DNA from: a virus
Taxonomy: Duplodnaviria; Caudoviricetes
IMG/VR virus record: IMGVR_UViG_3300037067_026010
Coordinates: 128,001 to 192,000 of that record
Length of the DNA: 64,000 nucleotides
Strand: one strand, 5' to 3'
Shown here: piece by piece, positions 4,657-62,320 of the stretch
How positions within the stretch are numbered: position 1 is the stretch's first letter
How the letters are laid out: every line of letters starts with the position of its first letter
Made by a program: the position numbers and the translations under genes
Notes under the pieces: generated by a model
Seen by the model: the letters and a program-made list of their open reading frames with translations, nothing else
The model's database searches: none
What the model was told of the DNA's origin: nothing

Positions 4657-4672
4657 CGGTGCTTAATTACCG
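4657..4672. promoter_or_regulatory. 16-bp quasi-palindromic motif, copy 1
   Basis: CGGTGCTTAATTACCG, intergenic. Confidence 0.75.
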
Positions 4673-4707
4673 CAATCCCGCTGTATTTGGCTAAGAGATA
4701 TCGTGGC

Positions 4708-5589
4708 TTAAACCACGTTGTTTTTTACGCCAAAAGATGCGTTTCCGTTGATATTTCCGGTCGTAGAAATGCCGCCGTAAGACTGAATAGGATGCTGATT
4801 CGGCGATTGATTTGCCTTCCCAGTCGGACCAGGAGCCATCGTCGTACTCGCTGCCAGAACCGCAGGCTGTGGCCTACGAGCCAGCAGGTCCATAACACTC
4901 GCTGTATCAGCTCCTACAGCCGACCCTCCCGGCTGCGGCGCCATAGGGCTCGCCACACCGCCTAATCCGGCTGTAGCAGGCGCTACGGCTCCTAAGCCAG
5001 ACGGCTGCGCTGTATTAGGTAATACAGCCGCCTTCTTTGCTGTATCAGCTGCTACAGCCGTACAAGGAGCTACAGCCATATGCCGCTGTACGGCTGCTGC
5101 CAGCAACTGCGCAGCCTTGATTGCTTGTAAATCAAACGGATCGGAGACAGGAGCTGCTGTAGGTGTTGATGTGCCACAGAGCATGGCGCCATCCTCGATA
5201 TTTGCGTATCCTGCCTCTTTTAACAATCGATAGGGTACGTAATCGTCCAGAACCGACGCCGACTTGGGATGCACGGGGATTCGCAGAAGTTGCAAGAGCT
5301 GCTCTGCGGGGTTTTTCGTTATTTTCGCGGCAGCTTGCTTGGAAAACCCGGAGTTGCCGTAACGAAGCAAGTCAAAAGGGCACAAGGCGGCCGTCGGCTT
5401 CGTGCCGGATGCCTGATCGCAATGCGTAAGTGGTAAAACTGTCGGCATGTCGACCGCTTGTGCCTTTTGTTTTCTGGGTCTTCGGAGTAGGAACGCTCTT
5501 TTGAGGTATTCTTGCTTCGTGATGACGCTGCGCCGGTAAGCACATGCATTATCCAGGGGCAAACCGGAAAGGGCGTTCCAGCTTTTCAC
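4708..5589 (-). CDS. Hypothetical protein with Ala/Pro/Gly-rich C-terminus (possibly virion-associated)
   Basis: 293 aa ORF; repeated K-x-A motifs (KQAA, KSAS, KEAG, KKAA). Confidence 0.6.
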   Translation of the reverse strand: MKSWNALSGLPLDNACAYRRSVITKQEYLKRAFLLRRPRKQKAQAVDMPTVLPLTHCDQASGTKPTAALCPFDLLRYGNSGFSKQAAAKITKNPAEQLLQLLRIPVHPKSASVLDDYVPYRLLKEAGYANIEDGAMLCGTSTPTAAPVSDPFDLQAIKAAQLLAAAVQRHMAVAPCTAVAADTAKKAAVLPNTAQPSGLGAVAPATAGLGGVASPMAPQPGGSAVGADTASVMDLLARRPQPAVLAASTTMAPGPTGKANQSPNQHPIQSYGGISTTGNINGNASFGVKNNVV

Positions 5590-5855
5590 AGTATGGCGAT
5601 CGGTTCCGCCTGCGTCAAGGCAGGCACTCGAATAGAGCGCGGATAGTACTGGGGCGGTTGGGTAGGTGGCTGGGGCCGAGGCGGGCTTCGGCAGTGATGC
5701 CGGATGGGCTGCGGCAGTGGGTGGGGTATAGTTCGCCGTTTTCTTTAGCTATGGCGCTTTTGCCTGTTTTTACGCGAACTACGAGGGGAGATTGACGCTC
5801 TACTCCTATAGGCTGGCCGTACCACTCTGCGGGCAGTCGCCCTGGCAGGTGGGTA

Positions 5856-5884
5856 TTTACAACCATGCCACCTTAGGGTATAGT
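5856..5884 (+). promoter_or_regulatory. Sigma70-like promoter
   Basis: TTTACA-17 nt-TATAGT upstream of the + strand gene at 6024. Confidence 0.6.
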
Positions 5885-5888
5885 TACA

Positions 5889-6000
5889 GGGAGAGGCAAG
5901 CGTGCTACGGCGGTTATCGACCCCTACGAGGCCCTACAGCGCGTCGATTCTCCGTCAGAACGCTTTCGGGGCCTTAGCATGGCCCATGACGATTGCCTCC
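5889..6000 (+). ncRNA. Candidate structured leader or small RNA
   Basis: Complementary pairs GAGGCAA/TTGCCTC, AAGCGT/ACGCTT, ATCGAC/GTCGAT, GGGCC/GGCCC just downstream of the promoter. Confidence 0.4.
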
Positions 6001-6023
6001 TACGATAAGGAAGGAGGGTTATT

Positions 6024-6236
6024 ATGCAAAGCCAAATGCTCGTGGAAGACCTGATCCGACACCTCCAGCAGCACCACCCGAAGTGCCCCGTCGTCATTGA
6101 AGGCGAGGCGACCTGCAGGCCGCAGTTCATCCTGGCCGGCACGGAGCAGGTATACGTCGGACCAGTTCCCACCGATCTGTCCAATCCCGAATACTTCCGA
6201 GAGGTGGATGTCGTGCGCATCGTCCCCGGTAATTAA
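6024..6236 (+). CDS. Hypothetical protein
   Basis: 70 aa, strong AAGGAGG SD. Confidence 0.8.
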   Translation: MQSQMLVEDLIRHLQQHHPKCPVVIEGEATCRPQFILAGTEQVYVGPVPTDLSNPEYFREVDVVRIVPGN

Positions 6237-6242
6237 GCACCG
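6227..6242. promoter_or_regulatory. 16-bp motif, copy 2
   Basis: CGGTAATTAAGCACCG overlapping the stop of 6024..6236. Confidence 0.75.
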
Positions 6243-6281
6243 CGGCATGCGCTTACATACCACTCTGCCGGGGAGTGCCGG

Positions 6282-6602
6282 CTAAACAGGCTGGCCTCCC
6301 CGAATGAGGGCGCTATTCTTCGCGGAAACCCGGCCCCGAGGTATGTGCTGGATGTACAACCGCGCCCCGTAAATATTCCGCCATGCCGCCACCGTTCGGC
6401 AGAGGACGCGAAACGACGCGAACTCGACCAGGAAGGTTTCGCCGTCCTGGAACTGCAGCCGCAGTCTGCCCCCTCCGTTCGCCATTCGCGAAAGGAAAAC
6501 GTTCCGGCAATTATGCTTGCCGGCGTAAGCGCGCACGCCGCGCAAGTTCCTCGATCGGGACACCACCTTTCCGGCAGCATCGCGTATCTGCAAAGACTTC
6601 AT
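6282..6602 (-). CDS. Hypothetical protein
   Basis: 106 aa, AAGGAG SD. Confidence 0.75.
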   Translation of the reverse strand: MKSLQIRDAAGKVVSRSRNLRGVRAYAGKHNCRNVFLSRMANGGGRLRLQFQDGETFLVEFASFRVLCRTVAAWRNIYGARLYIQHIPRGRVSAKNSALIRGGQPV

Positions 6603-6617
6603 GGTCGCTCCTTTCTT

Positions 6618-7691
6618 TTAAGTTCCAAGACTTGCCGCCTCCTGCTTGATACGCTCTTGAATGCACCAGGCGACCGCCGCGCACACCCGCTCCTCGTCAT
6701 TGCGAAAACCTCGATAAAACCGCGTCTCCTCGTTCCCGAAGCGCGGCAGGACGCGGTGAACTTGCGCCGAGCCGCCGCCCGTGCGCAGGATCAGGTAACA
6801 CCTGAACGACACCCCGCCGCGCTTTTCGTAATCGCCGGCATAGCTGCGTTTGCCGTAAGAACAAAAATCGCGCATAGTCAACAGCATCGCCCGCCATCCG
6901 GCGCTGATTTGCACGGAATGCACCACGCTGCCCGTCAGCTTATGGTTCTTGCCGGGCCTTCCGGAAAAATCGCAATGCGCATGAAAAAAGGGTGTAGTCT
7001 CCGGGAGATTGACCCTGCCTACCACGCGAAGGAGGCACTTTACCGCGCCGTCGCTGTCCGGGTGTTCTTCCCCGATCTTGCCGAGCCGGCGCAGCGTGCC
7101 GTCCTTCCAGGCCTTGCGCGTCGGCGCGATGCCCAGCTTGCCGGAACGGATGCGCTTGAGCAGAGCCTCTTCCTTCTCGGCAACGCGTTGCTCGGCGAGG
7201 TGCCGCGCCATTTCGAGAAACCGGCCCGGTTCGCCGCGCCGCGCCTTCTCGGCCATGCCGCGATTCGACCGGCGTATATGCCGCTGCCGGAGTATTTCCA
7301 GGGCCTCCTTGACGGCACGGCGCTCGGCGAAGTCCGTTTCGTAGTATTTTGCGCACTGCCCGAGTTTTTGCCAGGCCCGCCTGCGCTCCGGCGCAAAAGC
7401 GAGTAATTCCCGCGCCGTCGTTTTGGCCTTCAGGCGTTCGCGCATCGGCATAATCAGCGCGGCTTCGATCTCCCGATGCCGGCGGGCGTCCGACCGCTGC
7501 AACAACTCGCATGCGGCAACCGCTTCGGCCTGCCTGACGAGCGCGTCATAATCTTCGAAATCTCTCCAGCGGTACGAGCACCGATAAAAGACGCTGGCCG
7601 ACGAGCCTTCCAAGTACGCCTGTATGCCCGCATCGGAGCTTCTTAGGACGATCGTACCTAAAGCACACGGTTCATGAATTTCCACGCTCAT
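6618..7691 (-). CDS. Hypothetical protein
   Basis: 357 aa from MSVEIH, AAGGAG SD. Confidence 0.75.
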   Translation of the reverse strand: MSVEIHEPCALGTIVLRSSDAGIQAYLEGSSASVFYRCSYRWRDFEDYDALVRQAEAVAACELLQRSDARRHREIEAALIMPMRERLKAKTTARELLAFAPERRRAWQKLGQCAKYYETDFAERRAVKEALEILRQRHIRRSNRGMAEKARRGEPGRFLEMARHLAEQRVAEKEEALLKRIRSGKLGIAPTRKAWKDGTLRRLGKIGEEHPDSDGAVKCLLRVVGRVNLPETTPFFHAHCDFSGRPGKNHKLTGSVVHSVQISAGWRAMLLTMRDFCSYGKRSYAGDYEKRGGVSFRCYLILRTGGGSAQVHRVLPRFGNEETRFYRGFRNDEERVCAAVAWCIQERIKQEAASLGT

Positions 7692-7798
7692 GCGATTCTC
7701 CTTTCCTGATTTCCCGCGCCGTCTCGAATGCCCTTGTCTACGCGCTAGCCGCCTTGTTATCATTGAGTCGGTATCGCCGACTATTCAGGAGACCATTT

Positions 7799-8413: not shown

Positions 8414-8416
8414 ACC

Positions 8417-8875: not shown

Positions 8876-8879
8876 ATTG

Positions 8880-9814: not shown

Positions 9815-9854
9815 TTCAAGGTTCCTTTTTTTTTATGAAAATTTTGGTAACGGT

Positions 9855-10202: not shown

Positions 10203-10246
10203 TTTTCCTCCCGTTATAGTGCCCCAGGTAAATACCTGCCAAAATT

Positions 10247-10960: not shown

Positions 10961-10994
10961 GAGCAGGATCCTTCCGAAACGGGGTCAGAAACGC

Positions 10995-12441: not shown

Positions 12442-14439
12442 TTAGGCTGTTTCCTGGCGAGCGTCCTTGTCGCCTAGAGATATTACTCGCAAATGTCGTC
12501 CGTACCGCATTAAGTGCAGCATGTCGGCCGCTTGCTTCGGGTATTGCTGCTCCAGTAACTGGGATCCGGCGGCTTGCCGTGCTTGCTGCCGTTGGTCGTC
12601 CATAATGCTGCGCACCAGTGCCGCCAGTGCCGGCGCATCCTTCTTCAACCGAATCAGGAACGAATCCTTCTGCGATTCCGGCATGGACAGTGCCTGTGCA
12701 GCCAACGTTTGGGCCTTGCTCGTGAGTTCTTGCGGCGTCGTCGGTGCGGTCTCGCTATAATTCTGCGCCGCGAAGGCTTGCGCCGCTCCGGCCGGGCCTT
12801 GAGGCATGCCCATAGCCCCCATGGGGGCGCCGGCAGGTTGGCCAGCCCCTGGCATACCGCCGGGTATACCGCCTGGCATACCACCTGGCATGGCCGCGGC
12901 CGGCTGTGCCATTTGGTCGCCCTGTGCCGCTGCCTCCATCTCCTCCTGCTGCTTTTGTGCGGATTCGGCAGCGATGCGTTCTTCTTCCAGCTTGGTTCGC
13001 TCCTCGTCCAGGAAATCGAGCCCGACGCTGGTAAGACCGGTGCTTCTGGAAATCTGACCGCCCATCATCAACTGGAGTTTGGCCATCTGACGATTGAGGT
13101 CGTCGGCATGCGTAACGCGCACTAATCGGCAACTGACAGGTTCCCAGCTCATAATCTGCGATATACGGTCGACAAGTTGCCCAAGGAACCTATTCAGGTT
13201 ATGCACGAGGTGGCTCCAGTTCGCTTCGAAAAGTCGGAGCGCGGATGGTGCAGCCTGGGCCGACAAATTGCCCTTGTAAAGCTCTACGGGCACGTCACAA
13301 GCGTTTAATAGCATGTCCACGCCCAACTCCAGTAGATCTTTCGGCGCCAGCTGCGTCGCATCGCCACCCAGGGCCTTGTAATCGATCGGAAACGGCAGCA
13401 CGTTCCAGCGAGCAGGGTCGCGTCTGCGGGCCCGCAGCATGCCGTTTACCCGTGAGGTAAAGTTACCCATGTTCACGGACAGCACGGGATCGTTAATTTC
13501 ACCGCCTTGTCCCGGCCTCGGCATGGGTGTGAGGACACGGAACGGTATAACGTAGTCCAGGGCAATTGCCTCGTTGTAGCGATGCAATACCTGCACGTAC
13601 CACGCTTGCCGGAAATTCGTAAGGATACGCGAATATCCCCAACCACGGCTCCGAAGCCCGGCTGGCGGCTCCTCGCGCATGTGGTACACCACCTCTTTGT
13701 CGAATAGAAGATGCTGGTTCTGCCTTACCGCCTGTACGACGTCCCAGCTCGCGCGTTCGATATGATACAAATGCCCCTTCTTGAGCAATTGTCGATAGTC
13801 ATCCGGTATTTTCCAGATGTAGGCATTATCGTCCGTGTACGGATCATTGAGGATATCGATTTCGTGCGGTGACCATCTTTTGACTTTGATAGCGTTTTGC
13901 TCGCTGCTGCGCCGATCCACGTGCCGCCATATGCCTTGATAACCGCAGTTTAAACACCGGGCATTGAACTCGAAGTTCGACCAGGAAAAATGCATATGGG
14001 GATTGTTGAATATCCGTGACAAGGGCATCTCTACGCCGCAGTTTTTACAAGCCAAATGCCGCCTGAAGGGCAGTAGCACGCTGGTAAAAGAATTACCGTA
14101 GATCAGTAGGTCCAGGGCGACGATATGCAAAACGTTGCGAATGCCCAGTGTGTTGTCCAAGAAGTCTTTATACTTGTCGCGCTCCTCGCGGCCTACCTTG
14201 TCTACGCCGTTCGGCGCAGTAATTTCCACGTCAGTTAAAAAATAAGAGATGACGCGGCTCAGGGCAGCCCGGTACGGGCCCATCGCCATGGCGATATACT
14301 GGCACCATTGGAGGGCGTCCTGGTTGGTCTTCGGCATCGCGAGCGACGCCATATCCGCGAACGGACAAGGGAATAGCTCCGAATTACGTCCTGTAGTCCA
14401 AGCCGGGCTAATGCCCAGGGAATTGTCGGAGAGCGCCAA
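12442..14439 (-). CDS. Putative portal protein with Zn-ribbon insert
   Basis: 665 aa; DLLIYGNSF, WSPHEI, YHMRE...RGWGYS portal-like segments; CKNC/CLNC insert; low-complexity G/M/P/Q tail; AGGAGG SD + TTG. Confidence 0.6.
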   Translation of the reverse strand: MALSDNSLGISPAWTTGRNSELFPCPFADMASLAMPKTNQDALQWCQYIAMAMGPYRAALSRVISYFLTDVEITAPNGVDKVGREERDKYKDFLDNTLGIRNVLHIVALDLLIYGNSFTSVLLPFRRHLACKNCGVEMPLSRIFNNPHMHFSWSNFEFNARCLNCGYQGIWRHVDRRSSEQNAIKVKRWSPHEIDILNDPYTDDNAYIWKIPDDYRQLLKKGHLYHIERASWDVVQAVRQNQHLLFDKEVVYHMREEPPAGLRSRGWGYSRILTNFRQAWYVQVLHRYNEAIALDYVIPFRVLTPMPRPGQGGEINDPVLSVNMGNFTSRVNGMLRARRRDPARWNVLPFPIDYKALGGDATQLAPKDLLELGVDMLLNACDVPVELYKGNLSAQAAPSALRLFEANWSHLVHNLNRFLGQLVDRISQIMSWEPVSCRLVRVTHADDLNRQMAKLQLMMGGQISRSTGLTSVGLDFLDEERTKLEEERIAAESAQKQQEEMEAAAQGDQMAQPAAAMPGGMPGGIPGGMPGAGQPAGAPMGAMGMPQGPAGAAQAFAAQNYSETAPTTPQELTSKAQTLAAQALSMPESQKDSFLIRLKKDAPALAALVRSIMDDQRQQARQAAGSQLLEQQYPKQAADMLHLMRYGRHLRVISLGDKDARQETA

Positions 14440-14460: not shown

Positions 14461-14476
14461 TGGTAATTAAGCACCG
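14461..14476. promoter_or_regulatory. 16-bp motif, copy 3
   Basis: TGGTAATTAAGCACCG just upstream of the portal gene. Confidence 0.75.
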
Positions 14477-14640
14477 CAGCGATTTTTCACAAGCTTTTGC
14501 TCCACGCCGTCCGCCAGCCGCTTTGTCGTATCGTCGTCGAGTGCACGTATCTGCTGCGTTTCTCCTGCAGCCTTTACGCCTGGCTCGATCTTGTGTTCCA
14601 CATCCGGAGTTTGCGGTGTTATGGCGCCGTTTTTTTCCAT
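14467..14640 (-). CDS. Small hypothetical protein (57 aa, MEKNGAI...)
   Basis: Manual translation, below ORF-track cutoff; fills the gap; stop lies in the 16-bp motif. Confidence 0.7.
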   Translation of the reverse strand: MEKNGAITPQTPDVEHKIEPGVKAAGETQQIRALDDDTTKRLADGVEQKLVKNRCGA

Positions 14641-20389: not shown

Positions 20390-20405
20390 CGGTAATTAAG
20401 CACCG
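20390..20405. promoter_or_regulatory. 16-bp motif, copy 4
   Basis: CGGTAATTAAGCACCG, intergenic. Confidence 0.75.
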
Positions 20406-20444: not shown

Positions 20445-21170
20445 CTACGCTGTGGTATTCCCGGGCTGCGCCACGGCACCCTCCGAGTACAGCGTCACAG
20501 CGTAAGCGCAGAGCATCGCGGCATCCGCGATGTTATCCACGCCCGTCTGTTTGTAGGTTGCCGGATCCAGTTGAAAACCGAATGCAGCATTTGCCGCTGC
20601 GATCATGTCTTCTTTGCTGGCATTGCCGCGATGCGTGGCAAAAGACTTCAATTGGCTGCTGCTGATACCGTGGCACGGCACGCCCTGCTCCTCGCACCAG
20701 GTCGACACCGTAGCTTTAAGCGAGCCTAGAAACTCCGCGCCGCTCACCGCGCGCGACAGGATCATCGTCATGCTCTGCGTGCCTTTAGTCGGCAGGACGC
20801 TGCCGAAACGCGCGTCCTCGAGCATCACGAGATCGGGCTGCAATACCGCTAAGTATTGCCTGAGGCGCACGAGCCTTAACGGCCCGGAGTCGTAATCGCC
20901 GGAGCAACCGAGGTACCACTGTCCTGATGTAATCGTCGCCGCCGTCACGGGTTGACCCGGCACGATATCGCAAAAAGCAACGCCCGCGTGCGTCGCCAAA
21001 TCGAGACCTACGAAGCGCACGTGCGGGCGAATCACCCGCGGCAGCGTAAGCTCGTAAACTCGCGGATCCTTGGCAAGCGCCACTTTGCCTGTGGCCAGCT
21101 GTGTCACAAGCGCCGCCGCCAATTCCTCTATCGTAGCCTTCGGTTTAGCCGATTTTTTATCCGCTGCCAT
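20445..21170 (-). CDS. ruvC: RuvC-like Holliday junction resolvase
   Basis: VGLDLA, VMLEDA, QLKSFATHRGNASKEDM, DNIADA. Confidence 0.88.
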   Translation of the reverse strand: MAADKKSAKPKATIEELAAALVTQLATGKVALAKDPRVYELTLPRVIRPHVRFVGLDLATHAGVAFCDIVPGQPVTAATITSGQWYLGCSGDYDSGPLRLVRLRQYLAVLQPDLVMLEDARFGSVLPTKGTQSMTMILSRAVSGAEFLGSLKATVSTWCEEQGVPCHGISSSQLKSFATHRGNASKEDMIAAANAAFGFQLDPATYKQTGVDNIADAAMLCAYAVTLYSEGAVAQPGNTTA

Positions 21171-21192
21171 ACTGCCTTGCACCTTGTCCGAT

Positions 21193-30655: not shown

Positions 30656-32080
30656 TTATGGCACAACATCTTCAGGATCGACGTCCTGCTCCGCCGGTCC
30701 TGCTACATCCGGCACTTCGGGAACTTCACATTCGTCGGTGCCGGTCGGTTGCAACTGCGGCATATTTTCTACACGCTCGTACAGATCAACGCCGGCTGTG
30801 CCTTCGGAAACCACCGCCTCGGCCAATAGCCGCCGGAAGTCCATGCCGGGCTGAAACGGAATACGCGGGGTTATACCGAGCAGCGGGTACATCGCCTGCA
30901 ACAGGTCGGGCCGCTGCTCCAGTTTGCTGCCCAGCACGCGAAATTCCTGCGGGTCGCTCTCTGGTACCCCTAGCGCCCGGCTCCAGCCTGTGCGATTACC
31001 CTTGTTTGCCACGCGAATATCGCAAACGTCCATCAAGTGATTATAGATCGTTCGCTTACCCTTCATATTTTCAAATGACAATAGCAGCTCAATCGATGCC
31101 GTATCCCAGTCCCAGGCCGTCTGTTGTCTGAAGCCCTGACGACCCTCCGCGTCCTGATACTCCGTTAACCACCACAGCAATTCTGCGGTTATGCGCTTCC
31201 GCGACGGACCTAAGCTATTCTTGCGCAGGATAATGCTCAAACGCAGGCCGCCATACTCCAACCGATCGATGTCACAGCCGGGCGCTTTGTGCATCTCTAC
31301 CTCGAATACTTCCATGAATTTTACCGATTTCCCGCCACCGATATTGTTTACCGGCCGGCCCATATAATCGGTAGACGGCTTCAAGTGATTCGTACCGAGC
31401 ACGGAAAACGGGTAAGTTTTGATGGCATTCGGCATTGTTCTCATATACTGCGATATCAGCAAAGCGGCCAGCGCGAAGTCCCGCGAAGCATGCCCGGCTT
31501 CGAGGATCTTCTCCAACTGTGCCCTGGGCGCCGTACCCATGATCGAATCGATGCCGAAAGCAATAGGAATAGTCCGGCCTGGCCCGTCCGGGGAATCCTG
31601 ATACCGAGCTGCAATCTGCGTAAACGCCGTTAGGGCGTCCATCCAATCCTCCAACGTGTGCGTATAGACAACTTCTACACGGTTTAACCAGGACTGGTTC
31701 CAGCCCAGAAGGGAGCCGCGCAGCTCGGGGGCATCCTTCCCTTCGTTTTCGACAAATACCGCGCCGCCACCGTAGACGAGGTGCCATCGGAAAACTTCAT
31801 TCATGAAAGCCGTTTTGCAACAGCCCTCCTCCCCAGTGATCTGCGCGATCGTGCCCAGCGGATACATCGTAGATTGAAATAAATAACGTAATGCCAATGC
31901 CGGCAGCGGCAAGCCGACGCGCGGGCCGCTCGCCGAAGCCACGCTTACCGACAAACCCGTAGCGCGTTTTCCCTCGTCGCTCATGGCGAGAAACATCCCA
32001 TTAAGCTGTGTCTCGCGGTTTGCACCCTGCCATAATTGCTGGCGCCGCGCCAGTTCCGCCCGTGTTGCTGCCTTGGCCAT
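30656..32080 (-). CDS. recA: RecA/UvsX-like recombinase
   Basis: ITGEEGCCKT (Walker A), IDSI (Walker B), NHLK, GGGKSVKF. Confidence 0.85.
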   Translation of the reverse strand: MAKAATRAELARRQQLWQGANRETQLNGMFLAMSDEGKRATGLSVSVASASGPRVGLPLPALALRYLFQSTMYPLGTIAQITGEEGCCKTAFMNEVFRWHLVYGGGAVFVENEGKDAPELRGSLLGWNQSWLNRVEVVYTHTLEDWMDALTAFTQIAARYQDSPDGPGRTIPIAFGIDSIMGTAPRAQLEKILEAGHASRDFALAALLISQYMRTMPNAIKTYPFSVLGTNHLKPSTDYMGRPVNNIGGGKSVKFMEVFEVEMHKAPGCDIDRLEYGGLRLSIILRKNSLGPSRKRITAELLWWLTEYQDAEGRQGFRQQTAWDWDTASIELLLSFENMKGKRTIYNHLMDVCDIRVANKGNRTGWSRALGVPESDPQEFRVLGSKLEQRPDLLQAMYPLLGITPRIPFQPGMDFRRLLAEAVVSEGTAGVDLYERVENMPQLQPTGTDECEVPEVPDVAGPAEQDVDPEDVVP

Positions 32081-32113
32081 CTGACGTACCTTTCCTTCAA
32101 AAATAATTATCCA

Positions 32114-32166
32114 AAAACACGGCAGGGCCGGTTCGGTGCTTAACTACCGAACCGGCTACCTGCCGT
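32114..32166 (-). terminator. Long hairpin terminator containing 16-bp motif copy 5 (32134-32149)
   Basis: ACGGCAGG/GCCGGTTCGGT arms paired with ACCGAACCGGC/CCTGCCGT, then GTTTTT. Confidence 0.75.
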
Positions 32167-45780: not shown

Positions 45781-47928
45781 TCACAGTTGTATGACCGCGT
45801 CAAAAAGCGGGGCAAGTTCGTCTTCGTGCGTAACAATGATACATTGTAAGCCGCTACTCGACGCCAGCTGCCGCAATTGCGTCAATACCGGTGCAAATCC
45901 GCGGATATGATGCTTGTCCAAATATGCCGTAGGTTCGTCCAGCATAAGCAACCTGACCTGCGGCGCCAATCGTAAGTTGAGCGCCAAGCGTATTGCGCAG
46001 GCTAGTACCACCTTCTGACCGTGTGATAAGCGCTTTCCGGACTGCACGCGGCCGTCTTGGAAATGCGCGCAAAATGACATATCGTCGCTGACAGTCACAT
46101 AAAAGTCGGTCTGAAACAAGCTTAACGTTTCATTGGTCGCGACGGTCAGCCGTTGCAAGTTCTGCTGTATAACGTACCTTGGCAATGCATCCCAGTGCAC
46201 AATGTCACGCCACCGCGTGATACGCTGAAGCCACTCGCGGCTGCGCCGGCTCTCCTGCAGTTGCTCCTGAAGTCTGGCAACGTCCGCTTCGAGTTGCAAC
46301 CGTAGTGCCTGCTGCTGCACCAACTCTTGGTCAAGCTCCTGACGCTGAACCAGTTGCCCTGTGCGTATGTCGCAGCGCTCCCGCGCCGCCTGGGCATGTT
46401 CATCGACTATTCGCCCCTGGGCGAGCTGCTGCGACAGTTGCTGTAGACGCAGCTTGCTGGCGTCGTATCTGGAGCGAAGCGTGGCCGTTGCCACGCAGCA
46501 CGACTGCCAGTACGCCCTCCGCCGCTGCACCTCTGCAGTACGACCTGCGACTTCTTGGATTTGCGCTGTCAATTGCTCCGGCACGACATCCGGCATGTCC
46601 AACTGTTGCCATTGCTCCATCTGCACGCGCAAATCCGCGATCTTCGCCTGTAGCGCGGCACAATTGCCGTCGTACTTTGCCAGGGCTGTTTCGTAAGCCT
46701 CGCAGGACGCCTGCTCGCGGCGCAAGGCCTCCAATCTCGCCCGCAGCTCCGGCAACACTGTCCGGGCCCGATCGATCTCCGCCTGCAATCCGCCTACAAT
46801 GGGTGTATGACAGGTCGGACATTCGGCGCGGCCTGTTTGGGCCAGGTCCCGCAACATTTGCTCATACCGCGCTGCCCGAGTACTCAACGTCGTTATCTCT
46901 GTATCGGGATCGGTGCGCACGGTCGCATAGCCTTGCGGCGGTAACGGCCGCTGGAGTTGCTGCAGCTCCACTTCTGCCGTATGTAGCGCAGTGGCAACCC
47001 GGTCCCTCGTACGGACTATCGCCGCTTGCTTTTCCATATCCGCCAGCAATTGTTTGGCACGCTCGGCTGCCGGACGGCACGCCTCTAGGCGCTGTTCGCT
47101 GTCAGTCATATCTTGCTGCGCCGCTGCCTCAACGCCGGCAGCGACGTGGCCCTGTGCCTCCAGCTCCGCCAGCAGTTGTACTAAATGCTGCGCGTCCGCC
47201 AGCTCCGCTTGCTGCTGCGAGTATAACAGCAGGATACCCTCGTCTTCCCGTTGTGCCGCAACCAGCTCTACCAGCGGCTGCAACGCCTGGGCACGCTGCC
47301 GTACTGCCTCTTCCGCTTCTTGGGCAGCCGCCAGCTGCCGGCGCAAGGTATCCAGGTCGCCGGCAACTTCCGGCACGACAATCGCGCTACCGTGCGCTCC
47401 GAGCACCTTATATGCGGCCTCGGCGGCATCTGTGCGAAACAGCCGCTGGAAGGCCGCCGCGCGTTCGCCCTGCGTTGCGGACAGTACGCCAAAAATGTCT
47501 TCCTGCGCTACCAAAGCCACCTGCTGCAGCGTATCGAATGACACGTCCAGGATCGCCTCGATCCGCGCATTTACCTTCTTGTCGTCGCGCACCGTCTCCA
47601 GTTTTTTGTTGTTGAGGCGGTCGCACAGTCCCAATGTGGATTTGCGCGTATCGGGGCGCAGATGCCGCGTGACCGTTGCTCGGATATCGCCGTGCGTGAA
47701 CACGATCTTGCCGAACGCCGCCTCTTCCGCGGCAGCGTATTGCGAAACGTTTTCGTCCTTCGTACCGCTGTTGGCGTTCGCGCCGGTCAACAGCCAGCGT
47801 ATGCCGTTGAAAAAGTTCGATTTTCCAGAGCCGTTTGCGCCAAGCACGGCGGTCAGCCCGCGCTGGAAATTTTCGACGCGATGGTGGTGGTTGCAAAAAT
47901 TCACAAGCTCGATGGATTCTAAGAACAT
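45781..47928 (-). CDS. sbcC: SbcC/Rad50 ATPase
   Basis: GANGSGKS, Q-loop, CPTC zinc hook, LSHGQ, LDEPT, VTH. Confidence 0.95.
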   Translation of the reverse strand: MFLESIELVNFCNHHHRVENFQRGLTAVLGANGSGKSNFFNGIRWLLTGANANSGTKDENVSQYAAAEEAAFGKIVFTHGDIRATVTRHLRPDTRKSTLGLCDRLNNKKLETVRDDKKVNARIEAILDVSFDTLQQVALVAQEDIFGVLSATQGERAAAFQRLFRTDAAEAAYKVLGAHGSAIVVPEVAGDLDTLRRQLAAAQEAEEAVRQRAQALQPLVELVAAQREDEGILLLYSQQQAELADAQHLVQLLAELEAQGHVAAGVEAAAQQDMTDSEQRLEACRPAAERAKQLLADMEKQAAIVRTRDRVATALHTAEVELQQLQRPLPPQGYATVRTDPDTEITTLSTRAARYEQMLRDLAQTGRAECPTCHTPIVGGLQAEIDRARTVLPELRARLEALRREQASCEAYETALAKYDGNCAALQAKIADLRVQMEQWQQLDMPDVVPEQLTAQIQEVAGRTAEVQRRRAYWQSCCVATATLRSRYDASKLRLQQLSQQLAQGRIVDEHAQAARERCDIRTGQLVQRQELDQELVQQQALRLQLEADVARLQEQLQESRRSREWLQRITRWRDIVHWDALPRYVIQQNLQRLTVATNETLSLFQTDFYVTVSDDMSFCAHFQDGRVQSGKRLSHGQKVVLACAIRLALNLRLAPQVRLLMLDEPTAYLDKHHIRGFAPVLTQLRQLASSSGLQCIIVTHEDELAPLFDAVIQL

Positions 47929-48815
47929 TCGATATCGCCTCCACGCGCTAAAGTAATACAACGACTCATGCGCAAATGCTGCGGCTCCTGGACCATTTCC
48001 GTATCACCGCTGTCCACCCATTCTCGGTAGTGCATCCGCAGTGCCCGCATCGGCGGTATTTTAAATTTTATAGGGCAACCTTCCCAGAGCACCGGGGGTA
48101 GTGGCGCCTCCGTAGGCGTAATCTTGGCATCGGCATATATCGCCTGGCAGCACTGACATCTCCCTTGGCTGCGACATGTACCTCGGCCAATACCGCCACC
48201 GCATACGCTACAATAATGCGCCCACGGCGATGGCGCAAATGTCGTCCCGTACTCGGAAACTGCCACCGGGTTCCAGGCATAGCCGCTGACGGCATCGTGC
48301 AATAACTCCGCCGCTGGAGCACGCTCCGCTGCGCTAATGGTCTTATAGTCAGCCTTCAGCCACGCCGCGCCAACCGCCACGCGGGCCGCTATCTCGCCCG
48401 GCTGCCACAGGCAGAAACCTAGATGATATTTGCCGGTACGTGTACGCAACATTTGCGGCCACTCCTTCTCTGCGAGCCGCAAGGCCTCGGCACCGTTTCG
48501 CCAGAGCCGGACATCGCTGCCGAACCCCTCCTGCGGTGCGGCCGTTTGCACCGCGAAGGCGTAGCTTAGCTGTACGCCGGACGCCGACGTCCGCAACGAA
48601 AAAATATGCAAGCATCCGCGCACATATAGCGGCGGCCCCGCGAAATACAGCACCGTTGCCCCTTTCATGGCTCGCATGTATCGCAGTGTCCCGCGTATGC
48701 TTCCTGAGCCAAAGCCAGGTGCCACAGTTTGAATAACGTCAACCGACGCCGGCAGTGCCCGCTTCTGCAGTTCGGCTACTGCCTTTGCCGTGCGCGCATG
48801 CAGCTCTTTAGTCAT
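47919..48815 (-). CDS. Hypothetical protein inserted between sbcD and sbcC
   Basis: 298 aa, CSVC/CQCC; C-terminal RCITL. Confidence 0.75.
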   Translation of the reverse strand: MTKELHARTAKAVAELQKRALPASVDVIQTVAPGFGSGSIRGTLRYMRAMKGATVLYFAGPPLYVRGCLHIFSLRTSASGVQLSYAFAVQTAAPQEGFGSDVRLWRNGAEALRLAEKEWPQMLRTRTGKYHLGFCLWQPGEIAARVAVGAAWLKADYKTISAAERAPAAELLHDAVSGYAWNPVAVSEYGTTFAPSPWAHYCSVCGGGIGRGTCRSQGRCQCCQAIYADAKITPTEAPLPPVLWEGCPIKFKIPPMRALRMHYREWVDSGDTEMVQEPQHLRMSRCITLARGGDIECS

Positions 48816-49966
48816 GACGTCTCCCTGTGTTCACGGTACAACCGCGCAAGTTCAGCATACTTATCGTCGGCCTGCAATAAGCGCCGCAAAGCTACACGAT
48901 CTGCCGCATCGTCCGTAAGGGCATCCAAGCCCGCCAGTAGGTTGGCGAAGCCGTCCCGCACGGTGTCGTCCGGCGCGGTAAGCGCCGTAATCCCTACATC
49001 CTCCGTCCTCGGTTGTGCTTCGAGGAACAGATACCAGCGATCTCCGGCCGACTTTTGCAGTCTGGAGTATGCCTCGGGCAAATCGGAGGCGTACCGTACT
49101 CGAGCTATCGGCTTCCGTATATGCTCCGCAGTCGCAGCCCATGCCTCAGGCGTACCGTGTGACTCCCACAACCCGTCCGGCTGTACAGGATCGCGTGCCA
49201 AGTATTCCACGACGGCGTCGAGTGTCCTGCTATCCGATACGTCAAAAGCTAGCTTCGGCCGCGTATAGAAGCCTCGAGACTCCACGCGCAGTTCACAGCC
49301 CGGGCCGTCCAAATGCAGGATATAGAATTCCTTTGTAGCCGATTCGTCTATTGCCCGCAAATTCGTAGAACCGGGTGAAATCAGTCGTACTCGCTGCCCG
49401 GTCGCACCTTGCCCGTAAATCTGCTCGTGCTTGTGCCAATCTCCGGACAGGATCATAGACACGTGCGGCACGGATGCTACCGTCGCATCGGCTGTACCCA
49501 CAGCTTGCAGCTCGGCCCAAGAACAGTGCGTTGCCAATATGGTGGCCTGCGACGGAATATTATCCAACGCCGGCAGCATACCGCCCGGTTGGTAATCCAA
49601 TCCGTAAAGCCGTTGCCCGGGGCATACTTCGATAATGCGGTCGTGCAGATGCTGCGTCGCCGGAGCCGCTGCCGGCCACGGCGGGTTCCCGGCGACAACG
49701 CGGTCGTGATCGCCTTGAACGTAAAATAGCGGCAGCCTTGCTGCCTCCATGCGCTGTGCCCCCTGGTAGAAAGCACACCACGCCGCGGAGTCCGGCCGTG
49801 CCGTGTCGAAAATATCTCCCAGCAGCAGCCCGGGAACTGCATACTTCACGCAGTAATCGATGAACTGCGCAAAACTATCTTGGGAATCGCCGCAAAGCTC
49901 CGGGCGCCTTGCCCAATTGTGGCAATCCAAATGCAGATCGCCGGTTATTGCCAATATTGCTGCCAT
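48812..49966 (-). CDS. sbcD: SbcD/Mre11 nuclease
   Basis: GDLHL, GDIFD, GDHD, GDWH, PGS. Confidence 0.92.
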   Translation of the reverse strand: MAAILAITGDLHLDCHNWARRPELCGDSQDSFAQFIDYCVKYAVPGLLLGDIFDTARPDSAAWCAFYQGAQRMEAARLPLFYVQGDHDRVVAGNPPWPAAAPATQHLHDRIIEVCPGQRLYGLDYQPGGMLPALDNIPSQATILATHCSWAELQAVGTADATVASVPHVSMILSGDWHKHEQIYGQGATGQRVRLISPGSTNLRAIDESATKEFYILHLDGPGCELRVESRGFYTRPKLAFDVSDSRTLDAVVEYLARDPVQPDGLWESHGTPEAWAATAEHIRKPIARVRYASDLPEAYSRLQKSAGDRWYLFLEAQPRTEDVGITALTAPDDTVRDGFANLLAGLDALTDDAADRVALRRLLQADDKYAELARLYREHRETS

Positions 49967-49981
49967 GGTAATTAAGCACCG
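49966..49981. promoter_or_regulatory. 16-bp motif, copy 6
   Basis: TGGTAATTAAGCACCG spanning the upstream stop and abutting the sbcD ATG. Confidence 0.75.
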
Positions 49982-50337
49982 TCGTTGTCTTGTTGTACCT
50001 TGTGCTGCGCCTGCAGCATCTCGCTTAGCTTATGTAACGCCGCCGGCAAGAGACTGCCTACCGGTACGGCCTCGGGACAATCCGTCTTCCCGCATATCGG
50101 GCAAATCTCCTGCAACTGCCGAATGCGCCCGCCCTGCTGCTTCGTCAATTGCACTAACTCTGCGTCCAACTCGCTCTGGCACCGGATCATTTGCCGGGCA
50201 ATTCGGCCCGCCACGTAATAAGGCAAGCGTCCCCCGTCCTCCGTCAATCCGTGATAAAGCCGAGCAGCAGCGCTCAGCAAAACATGTTCCCGGAATGCCG
50301 TCTTGGCATACAGAGCGTTAAAAAAGGTTTTTGTCAT
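49972..50337 (-). CDS. Hypothetical protein
   Basis: 121 aa, CPICG. Confidence 0.75.
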   Translation of the reverse strand: MTKTFFNALYAKTAFREHVLLSAAARLYHGLTEDGGRLPYYVAGRIARQMIRCQSELDAELVQLTKQQGGRIRQLQEICPICGKTDCPEAVPVGSLLPAALHKLSEMLQAQHKVQQDNDGA

Positions 50338-56360: not shown

Positions 56361-56369
56361 AATCTGTCT

Positions 56370-56858: not shown

Positions 56859-56861
56859 AAA

Positions 56862-58895: not shown

Positions 58896-58903
58896 AGGGT
58901 CTC

Positions 58904-59332
58904 CTAGCCAAGAATCCCGGCCTGCAGCCGGGCTTCTGCCGTGCGTATTGGCGGGTCCAGCACCCTGGTCTCGCCATTTGTCAGTATCGCGATGTTAACG
59001 ATTTGCAGATGCGCTACGCCATCCACGACCCGCACATGCGGATCACTGAGGGCACGCTTATACGTCTGCCGCCAAGCACGCGGCAACCGTTCTGGATCGT
59101 ACGTCAGACTGGCAACCTGCTTGTGGCTTATGCCCTGCTGGAGCAAGTCCACCCACACCTCAAGCGCCGCGAGGCATTCGAGGGACTGCCTATATTTTGC
59201 CTTCAAGGCTTTAACGACCTCGACCGCGCGTTCGTGCGTCGCCATCAACTCTGCACTAGATTCTTGCGGAGTCTCGGCAACAGGCGGCCCCTCGACAGGG
59301 TGTGTATCCGGATTTTCAGTAGTCATCATCAT
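58904..59332 (-). CDS. Hypothetical protein
   Basis: 142 aa, AAGGAG SD. Confidence 0.75.
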   Translation of the reverse strand: MMMTTENPDTHPVEGPPVAETPQESSAELMATHERAVEVVKALKAKYRQSLECLAALEVWVDLLQQGISHKQVASLTYDPERLPRAWRQTYKRALSDPHVRVVDGVAHLQIVNIAILTNGETRVLDPPIRTAEARLQAGILG

Positions 59333-59558
59333 CTCCTTCCGCGTCCTCCTCTGCCCGATGTCGCGCCCTGGCCTGAAGCTTTAAATGCGTCTGCCAACGC
59401 TGGTCCGCCTCCTTGTGGCCGCGCGTTACTGCTTGTTTTAACAATTGCGCCCCCAAGGTGTTCATCGATCGCTCCTTCGCATATGCCAACCGTTTAAACT
59501 CCTTATAAAGCTCGATCGGCAGGCGCAGCGTGAGCACTGCCTGCTGTTTATCCGCCAT
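59316..59558 (-). CDS. Arc-like ribbon-helix-helix regulator
   Basis: LTLRLPIELYKEFKRLAYAKERSMN. Confidence 0.85.
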   Translation of the reverse strand: MADKQQAVLTLRLPIELYKEFKRLAYAKERSMNTLGAQLLKQAVTRGHKEADQRWQTHLKLQARARHRAEEDAEGDDDDY

Positions 59559-60375
59559 CTGTACGCGTTCCTTTCTGGCTCGATGTCTTCGCTAAGGTGT
59601 TCTCTAGGGTAATAGCCCGCGTGCGATCTGCGGCATGTTTCCGCTGATTCCACGCCGCGATAGACGCGGCACGCCACGCCTCCAGTTCTGCTTTTGCGGA
59701 CAGTAACCTTTCGCGAGTTATCCCGAACGATGCCATACCTTGGCCGGCAGGCGTCGTAAGCGAGGCTTGTGCCGAGGCCAAGGCCCGCGCAAGTTTTGCA
59801 TATTGGGCACTTTGTTGGGCCGGCGTGCCTATCTGGGAAGGTGCAACCGGCACGAGACCGTCGACGCGCCAGACGCTGATATTTGCCTCGGCTAGGCAGG
59901 TTTCCACAGCGGCAAAGGCCGCGGCGTTATCACCGGCGAATGACTGCAGGGCGTGGGTAAGCAGCGCCTCCAACGGGCTTATTGCCTTTATACGGCGCAA
60001 GGGGTCTGCCGTGCCATTGCCCCATATTGCAGAAACCAACCACTCAGTCGGGGAAGGTGCAGCATCCGCAGTATGAATAGCATAAGCCGGAGTCGCAGAG
60101 ACAACGGTATCAGCGGGCTCGTCGATATACGTCGTCCCCCACTGCCGATAGCATTGTCCGCACACCAATATGCAGTCATCTTGGTCAATTGGCTCTACCG
60201 TTTCTTGCGACTCCCAGAATACTTCCGTTTCCCCGGAGTGTTCGGCATTCATCTCCTCGTCAAAGGTGAGGCAGGCCATGCCGCATAGTGTCTCCAGCGT
60301 ACCGCCAGCTGGTGCACCACAGAACGGGCAGTGTGGGTCACGAAATTGCATCAAGTGTCTCCATAAGCTTGCCAT
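59548..60375 (-). CDS. Zn-ribbon domain protein (N-terminus paralogous to 58128..58895)
   Basis: CPFCG...CGQC; C-terminal RAITL. Confidence 0.75.
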   Translation of the reverse strand: MASLWRHLMQFRDPHCPFCGAPAGGTLETLCGMACLTFDEEMNAEHSGETEVFWESQETVEPIDQDDCILVCGQCYRQWGTTYIDEPADTVVSATPAYAIHTADAAPSPTEWLVSAIWGNGTADPLRRIKAISPLEALLTHALQSFAGDNAAAFAAVETCLAEANISVWRVDGLVPVAPSQIGTPAQQSAQYAKLARALASAQASLTTPAGQGMASFGITRERLLSAKAELEAWRAASIAAWNQRKHAADRTRAITLENTLAKTSSQKGTRTDGG

Positions 60376-60408
60376 CGGCCGTCAACGCGTAGACACGCAT
60401 CGGTATGG

Positions 60409-60424
60409 CGGTAGTTAAGCACCG
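60409..60424. promoter_or_regulatory. 16-bp motif, copy 7
   Basis: CGGTAGTTAAGCACCG, intergenic. Confidence 0.75.
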
Positions 60425-60464
60425 GATGGAAAATACATAGGTTAGGGAATTGGCGTAATCGTTG

Positions 60465-60535
60465 CTGTATGACGCTGTGCAGAAGGGGGGTATACGACGC
60501 TATCCGATACCCCCCTTCTGCACAGCGTCATACAG
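60465..60535. repeat. Perfect 29-bp inverted repeat with 13-nt loop
   Basis: CTGTATGACGCTGTGCAGAAGGGGGGTAT and its exact reverse complement. Confidence 0.95.
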
Positions 60536-60578
60536 ACGCAGCTACCCGCAAAAGTCGAAAAATCGAATTCGTGTTACG

Positions 60579-60604
60579 CTATAGGCTAAATATTTAGCCT
60601 ATAG
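60579..60604. repeat. Perfect 26-bp palindrome
   Basis: CTATAGGCTAAATATTTAGCCTATAG. Confidence 0.95.
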
Positions 60605-60620
60605 TGGCTTTTTTTGCACT

Positions 60621-60926
60621 TAAACCCTTACCACGTAAGGACTTACGTACGCAGAAAATCGATGTCCATGTTAATAAACATACTTAACATTTTTACGTAA
60701 GTCCTTACGCAGCAAGGACTTACGAGTGTTACTGCTTCCCCTTCTTCTAAGGGAGCTACCACAGTATGGCACGACATCGCTAATGCGTGGTAGCAGCGTC
60801 GTAACTACCTCGCCAGTAAGGAGTTACGTCAAATATTATCATTAGTGAGTGGCTCGCGTATGTAATGCCTCGTGTAGGTGGTGTGTAATGTAAATTCGTC
60901 GTAAGTCCTTATCGTGTAAGGGTTTA
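60621..60926. repeat. Four dyad sites CGTAAGTCCTTA-N5-TAAGGACTTACG
   Basis: 60621-60647, 60696-60724, 60800-60828, 60900-60926. Confidence 0.9.
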
Positions 60927-61097
60927 GGTACTATTTCAACCTCGTGATAGACATGGCGTATTTAGCCTACTTACTACTTCGATATCCTGCTACTGACGTG
61001 CAGGGATGAACAGCGATATACTGCTAATGACGCACAGGGCAACATCAGAGTTGTATGATGCCATATAGTAAAAGACTACTAATTTACTATATAAATG

Positions 61098-61130
61098 AAA
61101 AAAGCCATACCACCTACTGGTGGCATGGCT
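61098..61130 (-). terminator. Intrinsic terminator
   Basis: AGCCATGCCACC-AGTA-GGTGGTATGGCT plus T run. Confidence 0.75.
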
Positions 61131-61232
61131 AATACCTGCAATCATTACGGCTGTAGTCTGGCCTGTTGTCGGCTACCTATACAATTTCAAACGGTACTTT
61201 TACAAAGAACCGAGTAAATCGGGACTTGGGGC

Positions 61233-61481
61233 TTACGACTCGGCCGGTAACTCCCCAAGCTGCATGAGGCGCTGACACAGCGTATCCGCTGCTGCTTCCG
61301 GCGTCGGGCCTGCACATGTCAGACACTCCGCGAAAAGCTTATCCTGCCCGATGTATACCGGCTCCTTATAAGGGCGCCAGGCTTGCGCGTAGTAACCGCC
61401 ATAGTCCTTGTTGTAGCCCACACTGTAAGTCCAACCCTTTGCCTCGAGTTGTTGTAGCCGCGCATCTAACGTAGTACCCAT
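61233..61481 (-). CDS. Hypothetical protein
   Basis: 82 aa, GGAG SD. Confidence 0.8.
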   Translation of the reverse strand: MGTTLDARLQQLEAKGWTYSVGYNKDYGGYYAQAWRPYKEPVYIGQDKLFAECLTCAGPTPEAAADTLCQRLMQLGELPAES

Positions 61482-61496
61482 TTTATCACTCCAAAT

Positions 61497-61516
61497 AAAA
61501 ACCCCGCCGTAGCGGG
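61497..61516 (-). terminator. Possible terminator
   Basis: CCCGC-TACG-GCGGG followed by GTTTT. Confidence 0.5.
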
Positions 61517-61538
61517 ATGAAGCGCGGGTAATTAGTGG

Positions 61539-61859
61539 TCAGTCGCTGATAAGGTATTTTTTCGCAATTGGCGGGGTACTTTGCAAGATCAATCCACGCG
61601 CATTGACCTTGACGAAGAAACTATCCGTGAGCGTCGCGTCCGGGCACATGCGAAAAATGTTCACCCGGAAGGAGTACGGCGTAATCGGCGTTGCCCGGGT
61701 GCGGCATGCCGAAATCGGAGCCAGGTCCGCCGGCCGTCCCAGCAATTGCAGCACGCTGTTTAGTACGTGTTGTGGATTTACCGGGCTAATTGCCGCATTT
61801 TCTTGTGGTGCCTCCTGTTTATCGCAAGTAGCTGAGGCCGTTTTGGCAGGGCTAGACAT
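61539..61859 (-). CDS. Hypothetical protein
   Basis: 106 aa from MSSPAK. Confidence 0.7.
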   Translation of the reverse strand: MSSPAKTASATCDKQEAPQENAAISPVNPQHVLNSVLQLLGRPADLAPISACRTRATPITPYSFRVNIFRMCPDATLTDSFFVKVNARGLILQSTPPIAKKYLISD

Positions 61860-61996
61860 CACGCTTCCTTTCTGTGCCACGCACGCTTTTCCCTTAAAGG
61901 ACACTGATTTACCTAGGATTCGGGCACCGTTACGCACGATAACCCGGGGTATATCTGCAGCGCGCATCATTGTTATTGCCGTGTGCTGCAGTGGTT

Positions 61997-62320
61997 TTAC
62001 CGCCAGCCTCCAAGGCGTTTCGGAATATGCCAGCGCAAGCCGAAGGTACGATAGGCAAGGTCCTGGCCGATGGCGCAGGCGCAACCCAGCGCGGACAGGT
62101 GCACGTGCACATAGGCCTGCTCCGAGCCGTATAGGGCTATCGTACCATAATCAAATCTGGTGATTAAGCACCGCTCCCTGCCTTCGGCAAAGACGAGTAC
62201 GGCCCCGGAGCCGGCCTGCGGACCCTCAGTTTTTTGAAGGTCCACCACCCGTATGGTGTCCAATTTGTCGTGCCAGCTCGGGTCGCGCACGGACCACTGG
62301 TTGACGGTACAGGTTCTCAC
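61997..62320 (-). CDS. Hypothetical protein (contains 16-bp motif copy 8 at 62158-62173)
   Basis: 107 aa, GTGA coupling. Confidence 0.6.
   Translation of the reverse strand: MRTCTVNQWSVRDPSWHDKLDTIRVVDLQKTEGPQAGSGAVLVFAEGRERCLITRFDYGTIALYGSEQAYVHVHLSALGCACAIGQDLAYRTFGLRWHIPKRLGGWR

Follow-up and report, generated by a model that had tools for sequence, protein, structure and literature searches.

A dispersed 16-bp quasi-palindrome at the gene junctions of a 210-kb phage and its relatives: a candidate site for a phage DNA-binding protein

We have analysed a stretch of 64,000 nucleotides (nt), hereafter the window, which comprises bases 128001-192000 of a single virus record of 210,569 bp (IMG/VR IMGVR_UViG_3300037067_026010; Caudoviricetes), and a 16-bp quasi-palindrome that recurs in it at gene junctions. 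Judged from its sequence, this motif may be an orientation-free site on duplex DNA for a sequence-specific phage protein at the borders of transcription units, a reading that we favour while giving it somewhat less than an even chance. It is suggested by the over-representation of the motif with a steep fall-off over mismatches, by its placement at junctions and free orientation, by conserved junctions and a conserved core, and by the weakness of the RNA stem. Direct computation shows where the copies lie and that they face both ways, that relatives have a homologous family, that two junctions are conserved and that no RNA fold is; protein binding itself, and the effect of binding, we infer. 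What is new here, as far as sequence comparison can tell, is that seven related phages carry homologous variants of the motif at partly the same junctions.

Copies of the motif, their anatomy and their placement

Genes were called with a simple procedure of our own based on open reading frames (ORFs), and distances to start codons are therefore approximate. The GC content is 57%, and the minus strand carries nearly all called genes. Copies are named by their form on the coding strand, F for CGGTAATTAAGCACCG and R for CGGTGCTTAATTACCG.

The 10-mer TTAAGCACCG occurs eight times in the window, six times on the plus and twice on the minus strand; dinucleotide-preserving shuffles gave a chance expectation of 0.16 on average and one at most. 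The eight copies in both orientations described in an earlier note on this DNA are thus all present. Each fits the 16-mer pattern YGGTRRTTAAGCACCG with 0 mismatches, and no further copies of this pattern were found in the window at up to two mismatches. The 10-mer is found 19 times in the entire genome, where CGGTAATTAAGCACCG has 12, 7 and 3 copies at 0, 1 and 2 mismatches, respectively (22 in total), against 0, 0 and 1 for its reversed control. The commonest 10-mer, 12-mer and 14-mer of the genome all belong to the motif, which also provides the most over-represented 10-mer.

The unit measures 16-18 bp, (G)CGGT-AATTAAGC-ACCG(C), with GCGGTAATTAAGCACCGC as its 18-bp form. Its outer arms make a perfect 4-bp inverted repeat around an asymmetric, AT-rich core of 8 bp: the arms CGGT/ACCG and the central TTAA are symmetric, and positions 5-6 and 11-12 are asymmetric and conserved. 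In the versions found in relatives, symmetry is confined to GGT/ACC. The sole difference between F and R is the inversion of the central 8 bp between the 4-bp arms. Beyond the 16 bp, only a G at -1 and a C at +17 are enriched; within 60 nt on either side of the copies we found no second conserved box, no target duplication and no longer shared cassette. The copies in the window, together with the hairpin formed around one of them, are as follows (aa, amino acids).

4657..4672, minus strand: motif copy, F form, CGGTAATTAAGCACCG; intergenic, 35 nt past the stop of a 246-aa gene and before the first gene of a small-protein array
6227..6242, plus strand: motif copy, R form, CGGTGCTTAATTACCG; 39 nt past the upstream stop and 6 nt ahead of the ATG at 6220
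14461..14476, plus strand: motif copy, R form; the 57-aa gene 14467-14640 stops at the TAA inside this copy, and 21 nt separate the copy from the start of the 665-aa gene 12442-14439
20390..20405, plus strand: motif copy, R form; the RuvC-like gene 20445-21182 stops 39 nt before it, and AAAGGA and an ATG come next
32134..32149, minus strand: motif copy, F form, variant CGGTAGTTAAGCACCG; the preceding stop is 23 nt away, and the UvsX-like gene 30656-32080 begins 53 nt further on
32112..32166, minus strand: long hairpin that has the motif as its apex and a T run behind it; a 60-nt fold of -37.8 kcal/mol with arms of about 17 bp
49966..49981, plus strand: motif copy, R form; the 121-aa gene 49972-50337 ends at the TAA of this copy, whose final base also provides the A of the start codon ATG of the 384-aa gene 48812-49966
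60409..60424, plus strand: motif copy, R form (variant); intergenic; the ATG (60375) of a 275-aa gene follows after 33 nt
62158..62173, plus strand: motif copy, R form (two mismatches); within a weak 107-aa ORF; should this ORF be spurious, the copy would stand between a stop (62317) and a start (62084)

The claim that copies lie mostly at gene boundaries holds in the window: those at 14461 and 49966 carry the TAA of the upstream gene, those at 4657, 6227, 20390, 32134 and 60409 are intergenic, and the copy at 62158 falls in the weak ORF, which may be spurious. One copy, at 32134, indeed occupies the tip of a long hairpin as had been described, and this hairpin looks like an intrinsic terminator.

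Placement throughout the genome is similar. About 18 of the 22 copies are intergenic or straddle a gene end; the stop of the upstream gene is a TAA within the central TTAA in six of them, and 16 are no more than 40 nt from the preceding stop. Where the spacer is long (eight cases), the upstream stop is nearer than the downstream start for seven copies. Distances from the motif to starts range from -1 to over 200 nt in this phage. With a degenerate pattern describing the whole motif family, 15 of 20 sites in this genome fall outside called genes, compared with 10% expected (binomial P = 1e-11), and the genome-wide scan proposed earlier as a check thus gives a non-random, junction-biased placement. 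On the coding strand nine copies have the F and 13 the R form, with almost all genes on one strand. No clear bias was seen in the association of copies with variable or conserved neighbouring genes.

Two other observations concern the surroundings of particular copies. A second 16-bp palindrome, CGTGGTTTAAGCCACG (window 4702-4717), matches the motif at 10 of 16 positions; situated where the 246-aa gene stops, and 30 nt away from the copy at 4657, it may be a decayed motif copy or a small terminator. The stretch 60425-61232, which ends at the copy at 60409, comprises 808 nt without a called gene and belongs to the part of the window with the lowest GC content (0.54); a non-coding RNA or a regulatory region could be located there.

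Related phages, conserved junctions and alternative roles

The 665-aa protein encoded beside the copy at 14461 has more than 1000 homologues. Large related contigs G001, G007 (IMGVR_UViG_3300000944_000005) and G008, along with the more distant G002 and G003, were examined in full and compared with this phage (G000), as were four further loci of 12-22 kb: L159 (GCA_040384245.1, JAWVHA010000157.1), L160, L308 and L309. The exact motif is absent from all these contigs and loci. Homologous variants, however, are found in eight genomes including this phage, that is, in seven related uncultured phages, and follow the pattern YGGT-N8-ACCR with an asymmetric AT-rich core. Their coding-strand forms are given below; the sequence of the G007-type variant is TGGTTCCTATTTACCG.

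This phage: motif variant CGGTGCTTAATTACCR
G001: motif variant TGGTTYCTAAGTACCR
G007, G008 and L160: motif variant YGGTTCYTATTTACCR
L159, L309 and one site of G007: motif variant CGGTTCCTAATTACCG
L308: motif variant GGTAYCTAAKTACC

A degenerate 14-nt pattern finds 57 sites over the eight genomes of this subclade, with one control match, and a single match in six other relatives totalling 1.19 Mb. Sites of the family are enriched at junctions in G001 (P = 2e-3), G007 (P = 2e-4) and G008 (P = 8e-8). In relatives the F and R forms number 2 and 4, 3 and 4, and 9 and 3. When the forms of this phage are compared with those of G007, F with F and R with R agree at 12 of 16 positions and the cross comparison at 9 of 16; because the asymmetric core is conserved between genomes, it is probably the core that is read and not the arms alone.

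Two junctions keep the element. The one before the 665-aa gene has a homologous element in seven of the eight subclade genomes, supplying the stop of the small upstream gene in several of them; most relatives at 54-58% identity have none there. The one before the 384-aa gene has it in all four fully examined genomes of the subclade, 0-7 nt ahead of the ATG, in the R form here and the F form in the other three, so that the position of the element is kept and its direction is not. The proteins flanking both junctions are 37-72% identical between genomes. Conservation in relatives, whose lack was among the refuting results named in the earlier note, is seen as homologous variants in seven phages and as two shared junctions. 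The names given there to the downstream genes fared unevenly: the UvsX/RecA-like assignment is supported, but the 665-aa 'portal' and 384-aa 'sbcD' genes have no match in Pfam, PHROGs or PDB sequence searches, and both names reflect the neighbourhood only. An SbcC-like assignment in this neighbourhood (45781-47961) is supported. PHROGs annotation of downstream genes in general returned mostly unknowns. In L159, L160 and L308 a tubulin-family (PhuZ-like) protein is encoded 3-5 kb downstream of the 665-aa gene, according to Pfam.

Among the four functional options put forward earlier, a DNA operator or organisation site fits these data best, and both a promoter and an RNA hairpin tag are disfavoured. 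A role as promoter or core promoter element, used by a multisubunit RNA polymerase of the phage itself or by one of its sigma factors, would be in keeping with lineage-specific, near-identical sequences that precede many genes; the promoters of the T7 group are lineage-specific and near-identical as well. A virion RNA polymerase and a sigma factor have been described for phage Arash (PMC10585845). Nevertheless, an asymmetric element stands here in both directions before genes that run one way, the conserved 384-aa junction is flipped between genomes and its ATG overlaps the motif, copies lie ahead of genes of different presumed classes, and placement is tied more tightly to the upstream stop than to the downstream start. 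Scoring of sigma-70 promoters behind the copies revealed no enrichment, with four of 22 sites at or above a score of 8 compared with 18-28% of control junctions. We consider a promoter role the most improbable of all the options.

An RNA hairpin at transcript ends, serving as terminator, stabiliser or processing tag for a phage RNA-binding protein, has little more in its favour. The element closely follows stop codons, folding energies in this phage are -3 to -9.5 kcal/mol for the unit plus flanks, two copies genome-wide cap long hairpins (that at 32134 being the only one in the window) and three precede T runs; inversion of the loop inside a hairpin is known elsewhere, for instance in chloroplast 3' hairpins. 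On the other hand, homologous copies in relatives have stems of 3-4 bp and about -2 kcal/mol, in four copies the closing pair on the mRNA strand is a C-A mismatch that no other change compensates, 17 of the 22 copies are devoid of terminator features, and stronger canonical terminators exist elsewhere in the window, e.g., 15664-15636. A single sequence-specific RNA recognition is incompatible with both orientations, which give different RNAs; together with the weak folds of relatives, this speaks against the suggestion that the motif is an RNA tag bound by a RAMP-like protein. An Rfam scan of the window gave zero matches at the gathering score. In our judgement the chance of such an RNA role is very small.

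A signal acting in the mRNA at translation junctions, similar to the start-associated sequences (SASs) of Cluster K mycobacteriophages, would combine a stop codon with ribosome-binding information and would perhaps be bound by a translational regulator. The F form in G007, G008 and G001 contains TAA or TAG plus AGGA or AGAA, 2-25 nt ahead of starts in 10 of 11 intergenic cases, and six copies in this phage provide a stop codon. SASs are built alike, with GGG-N7-CCC outer symmetry and an inner ATAGGAG, 3-7 bp before starts and sometimes with the upstream stop inside (PMC3203893). However, R-form copies are a different RNA and yet are found at junctions of the same kinds, in this phage the F form (…TTAAGCACCG) is devoid of a Shine-Dalgarno core and stands 16-99 nt away from starts, and SASs typically have one orientation (PMC3203893). 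We therefore see only a slight chance of a translational role.

The motif might instead be a selfish or recombinogenic junction repeat resembling PeSL or REP elements, spread and homogenised by gene conversion or microhomology recombination, tolerated between genes and acting mainly as a crossover point for gene swaps. Copies are near-identical inside a genome and different between genomes, both orientations are present and one conserved site has flipped, several copies stand beside genes or indels that are not shared with relatives, and purifying selection alone would give the placement at junctions; PeSLs are a precedent (PMC2839356, PMC4122927). In addition, the copies at genome position 120127 and window position 14461 (genome 142461) have opposite orientation and a common right flank of 9 nt, CCGGGCATA, whereas about 0.002 such pairs are expected, and this shared flank suggests that the core can be inverted or converted in place. 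Against such a repeat, two junctions keep the element across genomes in spite of flanking proteins as divergent as given above, the asymmetric core is conserved between genomes, and no Y1 (RAYT-type) transposase (PF01797) was matched in G000, G001, G007 or G008. The copies are surrounded neither by target duplications nor by a longer shared cassette, they adjoin conserved as well as variable genes, and the unit has no promoter-terminator module of its own. Overall, we regard a selfish origin as quite unlikely.

Exact scans with the 16-mer in viral, metagenome and genome collections returned single chance-level matches only, none of them related to the phage by blastn or tblastn, and a megablast of 20 kb against a phage record collection had no match. 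No bacterial genome with more than one copy of the motif was found in these scans. One cluster of metagenome matches turned out to be a longer, unrelated repeat in which the 16-mer is present by coincidence, so the motif is not a host REP and no near-identical relative is at hand.

We also asked whether every relative has its own junction palindrome, which turned out to be only partly true. G002 contains 12 copies of a 20-bp palindrome, TCTAAAAAGTACTTTTTAGA, and G003 14 copies of TTAAAATCCGGAATTAAA; these (quasi-)palindromes are partly located at junctions that bear the YGGT...ACCR element in this subclade, namely before a primase-like 1011-aa gene, near G000_265/266 and upstream of the homologue of the 384-aa gene. 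G012 has 21 dispersed copies of AAAGATATCTAT, 17 of them on the coding strand, and G010 about 25 copies of the palindrome CTCATTGATATCAATGAG. Both words are centred on GATATC and occur mostly within genes, a behaviour unlike that of the junction motif. No dispersed motif of such kind was detected in G011 and G013. Lineage-specific dispersed DNA words are hence common, but not universal, in this phage family, and those of different lineages may not all be the same thing.

Two further repeats were noticed in these genomes. G002 has 11-13 copies each of AAACCGATGAGCAGGTATTACGAT and GGTTTAGAAGATGAGAC, which may be promoter-like elements; one AAACCGATGAGCAGGTATTACGAT lies about 25 nt upstream of a palindrome copy. 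In G007 (L241:14889-16000), one locus of more than 1 kb contains at least 18 copies of a repeat of 27 nt or more, GTCACAATGTACGAAGCCCA..., at irregular spacings of 50-126 nt, which could be an iteron field or a CRISPR-like repeat array.

A possible DNA site and its reader

If the motif is a protein-binding site on DNA, a sequence-specific protein encoded by the phage would bind about 22 sites on the double-stranded genome in either orientation. The sites would lie in short spacers, typically 0-40 nt past the upstream stop and ahead of the ribosome-binding site (RBS) or promoter of the next gene, and the bound protein would mark the borders of transcription units. It might act as a roadblock or insulator against read-through or, alternatively, the site might be a loading or operator site beside the promoter of the next unit, by which many units would be tuned together. 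Dispersed operator networks have precedents in the stoperators (PMC6550527) and in the OB sites of KorB (PMC11790492).

Several points weigh against this reading. A strongly conserved asymmetric core working both ways is unusual among known operators; stoperators, for example, run predominantly in one direction (PMC6550527). The F form of G007 and G008, CGGTAAATAGGAACCA, has a stop codon and AGGA 3-7 nt ahead of ATGs, resembles the stop-RBS junction of a start-associated sequence and could have a role in RNA or translation. A few copies are terminator-like, three being ahead of T runs and two in long hairpins. Finally, copies within one genome are more alike than copies at the same junction of different genomes, a likeness which a selfish repeat undergoing gene conversion would likewise produce.

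One proposed reader is P0121, a protein of the ParB family encoded outside the window (genome 106552-107424). It would be loaded as a CTP-dependent clamp at the 16-bp near-palindrome and would silence promoters close by, in the manner of KorB at the OB sites of plasmid RK2. P0121 matches ParB_N (34.6 bits) and HTH_ParB (28.5 bits) above the Pfam cut-offs, has a GERR box in IDGERRLQA and matches ParB PHROGs, and no other protein of the genome matches ParB_N; its gene alone has a motif copy on either side (107524 and 106519). ParB-family sites are 16-bp palindromes, with OB sites of KorB 4-10 bp or 45 to over 1000 bp upstream of promoters (PMC11790492), and a clamp loaded at a site would be indifferent to the orientation of that site. 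Three copies, also outside the window (genome 82045, 106519 and 120127; loci L261, L262 and L263), are followed after 1 nt by a -35-like hexamer and 16 nt further on by TATAAA, TATAAT or TATATT, with identical spacing; the arrangement resembles a host-type promoter that has the motif at about -51 to -36.

However, G001, G007 and G008 share the motif family and two junctions and have neither a ParB_N match nor a homologue of P0121. With completeness of 54%, 75% and 89%, respectively, the chance of missing a ParB in all three fragments, were there one in each, is about 1%. The lone HTH_ParB match in these three (G001) is below the cut-off and its protein is not conserved. Homologues of P0121 at E <= 1e-10 number only 20 among 5.8 billion proteins; none is encoded on the L159 (228-kb) or L160 (213-kb) contigs, and those examined come from prophage or bacterial contexts with no shared motif. 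Furthermore, the ParB gene is situated within a hypervariable block without homologues in relatives, and ParB dimers read symmetric sites, whereas the motif has a conserved asymmetric core between its symmetric arms. Because the motif-bearing relatives searched have no ParB, the motif family is probably older than the P0121 gene. A KorB-like network under P0121 is accordingly unlikely as an explanation of the motif, the bracketing copies could reflect insertion of the gene at a pre-existing site, and ParB would at most be a late recruit as reader, which we also doubt. P0121 is a candidate reader for this genome only.

Other searches for a reader protein were negative. The Arc-like ribbon-helix-helix protein at 59316, named as a candidate in the earlier note, scores below both Pfam cut-offs and lies in a block without homologues in motif-bearing relatives. 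Phylogenetic profiling yielded 24 subclade-specific genes, of which the ten small ones, scanned with Pfam, showed no DNA-binding domain and no cognate immunity repressor. Among the genes that lie between two copies in G008 no regulator is evident, and proteins of the HU/IHF family are absent. The comparison carries a warning that a site should not be assigned to the nearest plausible DNA-binding gene.

A bolder form of the DNA-site reading, to which we attach a low though appreciable probability, is that of an undescribed, fast co-evolving pair of a reader protein and an asymmetric 16-bp junction site. In this clade of uncultured phages of 200 kb, which carry out transcription with an RNA polymerase of their own, such a pair would gate or insulate 10-20 transcription units in either direction, and the site would be invertible in place, for instance at the junction before the 384-aa gene and at the two copies with a common flank; if true, punctuation of the genome by this pair would be of a new kind, differing from promoters, terminators, stoperators and ParB sites alike. 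The regulatory grammar of large phages with their own RNA polymerases is almost unread, these phages being mostly known from sequence, and the motif offers a handle on it: the 16-mer is defined well enough for pull-downs, about 20 sites are naturally available for tests, and eight related genomes supply variants that should predict the specificity of the reader. If found, the reader would show how a one-directional genome of 210 kb is divided into units.

Comparison with known systems

The motif shares traits with several dispersed elements and lacks a defining feature of each of the closest systems, i.e., stoperators, KorB OB sites, SASs and PeSLs. The PeSL cassettes of T4-like phages (PMC2839356, PMC4122927) are likewise repeated between genes in variable regions of a large lytic phage, but are longer and consist of a directional early promoter and a stem-loop, and the motif has neither a promoter nor a conserved stem-loop. 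Bacterial REP elements (PMC12306157) are also short, imperfect, intergenic palindromes, usually just past genes and in both orientations. Unlike in the REP/RAYT system, there is no Y1/RAYT gene in the four full genomes and no motif-rich host genome, copies are single and not paired, and the stem is not kept in relatives.

The SASs (PMC3203893) come close in their symmetric outer triplets, an asymmetric core with a stop and an RBS-like AGGA, a position a few bases before starts and their maintenance across subclusters, and the F form of G007 and G008 is very similar to them. SASs, however, are essentially one-directional and belong to the non-structural half of the genome, whereas the motif occurs in both directions genome-wide and has lost the RBS-like core in this phage. 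The KorB/OB system of the IncP plasmid RK2 (PMC11790492) differs in the symmetry of OB as opposed to the conserved asymmetric core of the motif, in the relatives that bear the motif with no ParB found, and in the KorA-like partner site, of which none was seen here. It agrees in being a multi-copy 16-bp (near-)palindrome distributed across a mobile genome, near to or far from promoters, and this phage has a ParB-family protein with GERR box and helix-turn-helix whose gene is flanked by two copies.

The stoperators of Cluster A mycobacteriophages, bound by L5 gp71-type repressors (PMC6550527, PMC9283540), are 13 bp long, mostly of one orientation and found in temperate phages with a known monomeric two-domain repressor, whereas the motif has 16-18 bp, inverted-repeat arms and free orientation in a 210-kb phage. 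What both have in common is dozens of short asymmetric sites dispersed genome-wide in similar numbers, a lineage-specific, drifting consensus and sites at syntenic positions.

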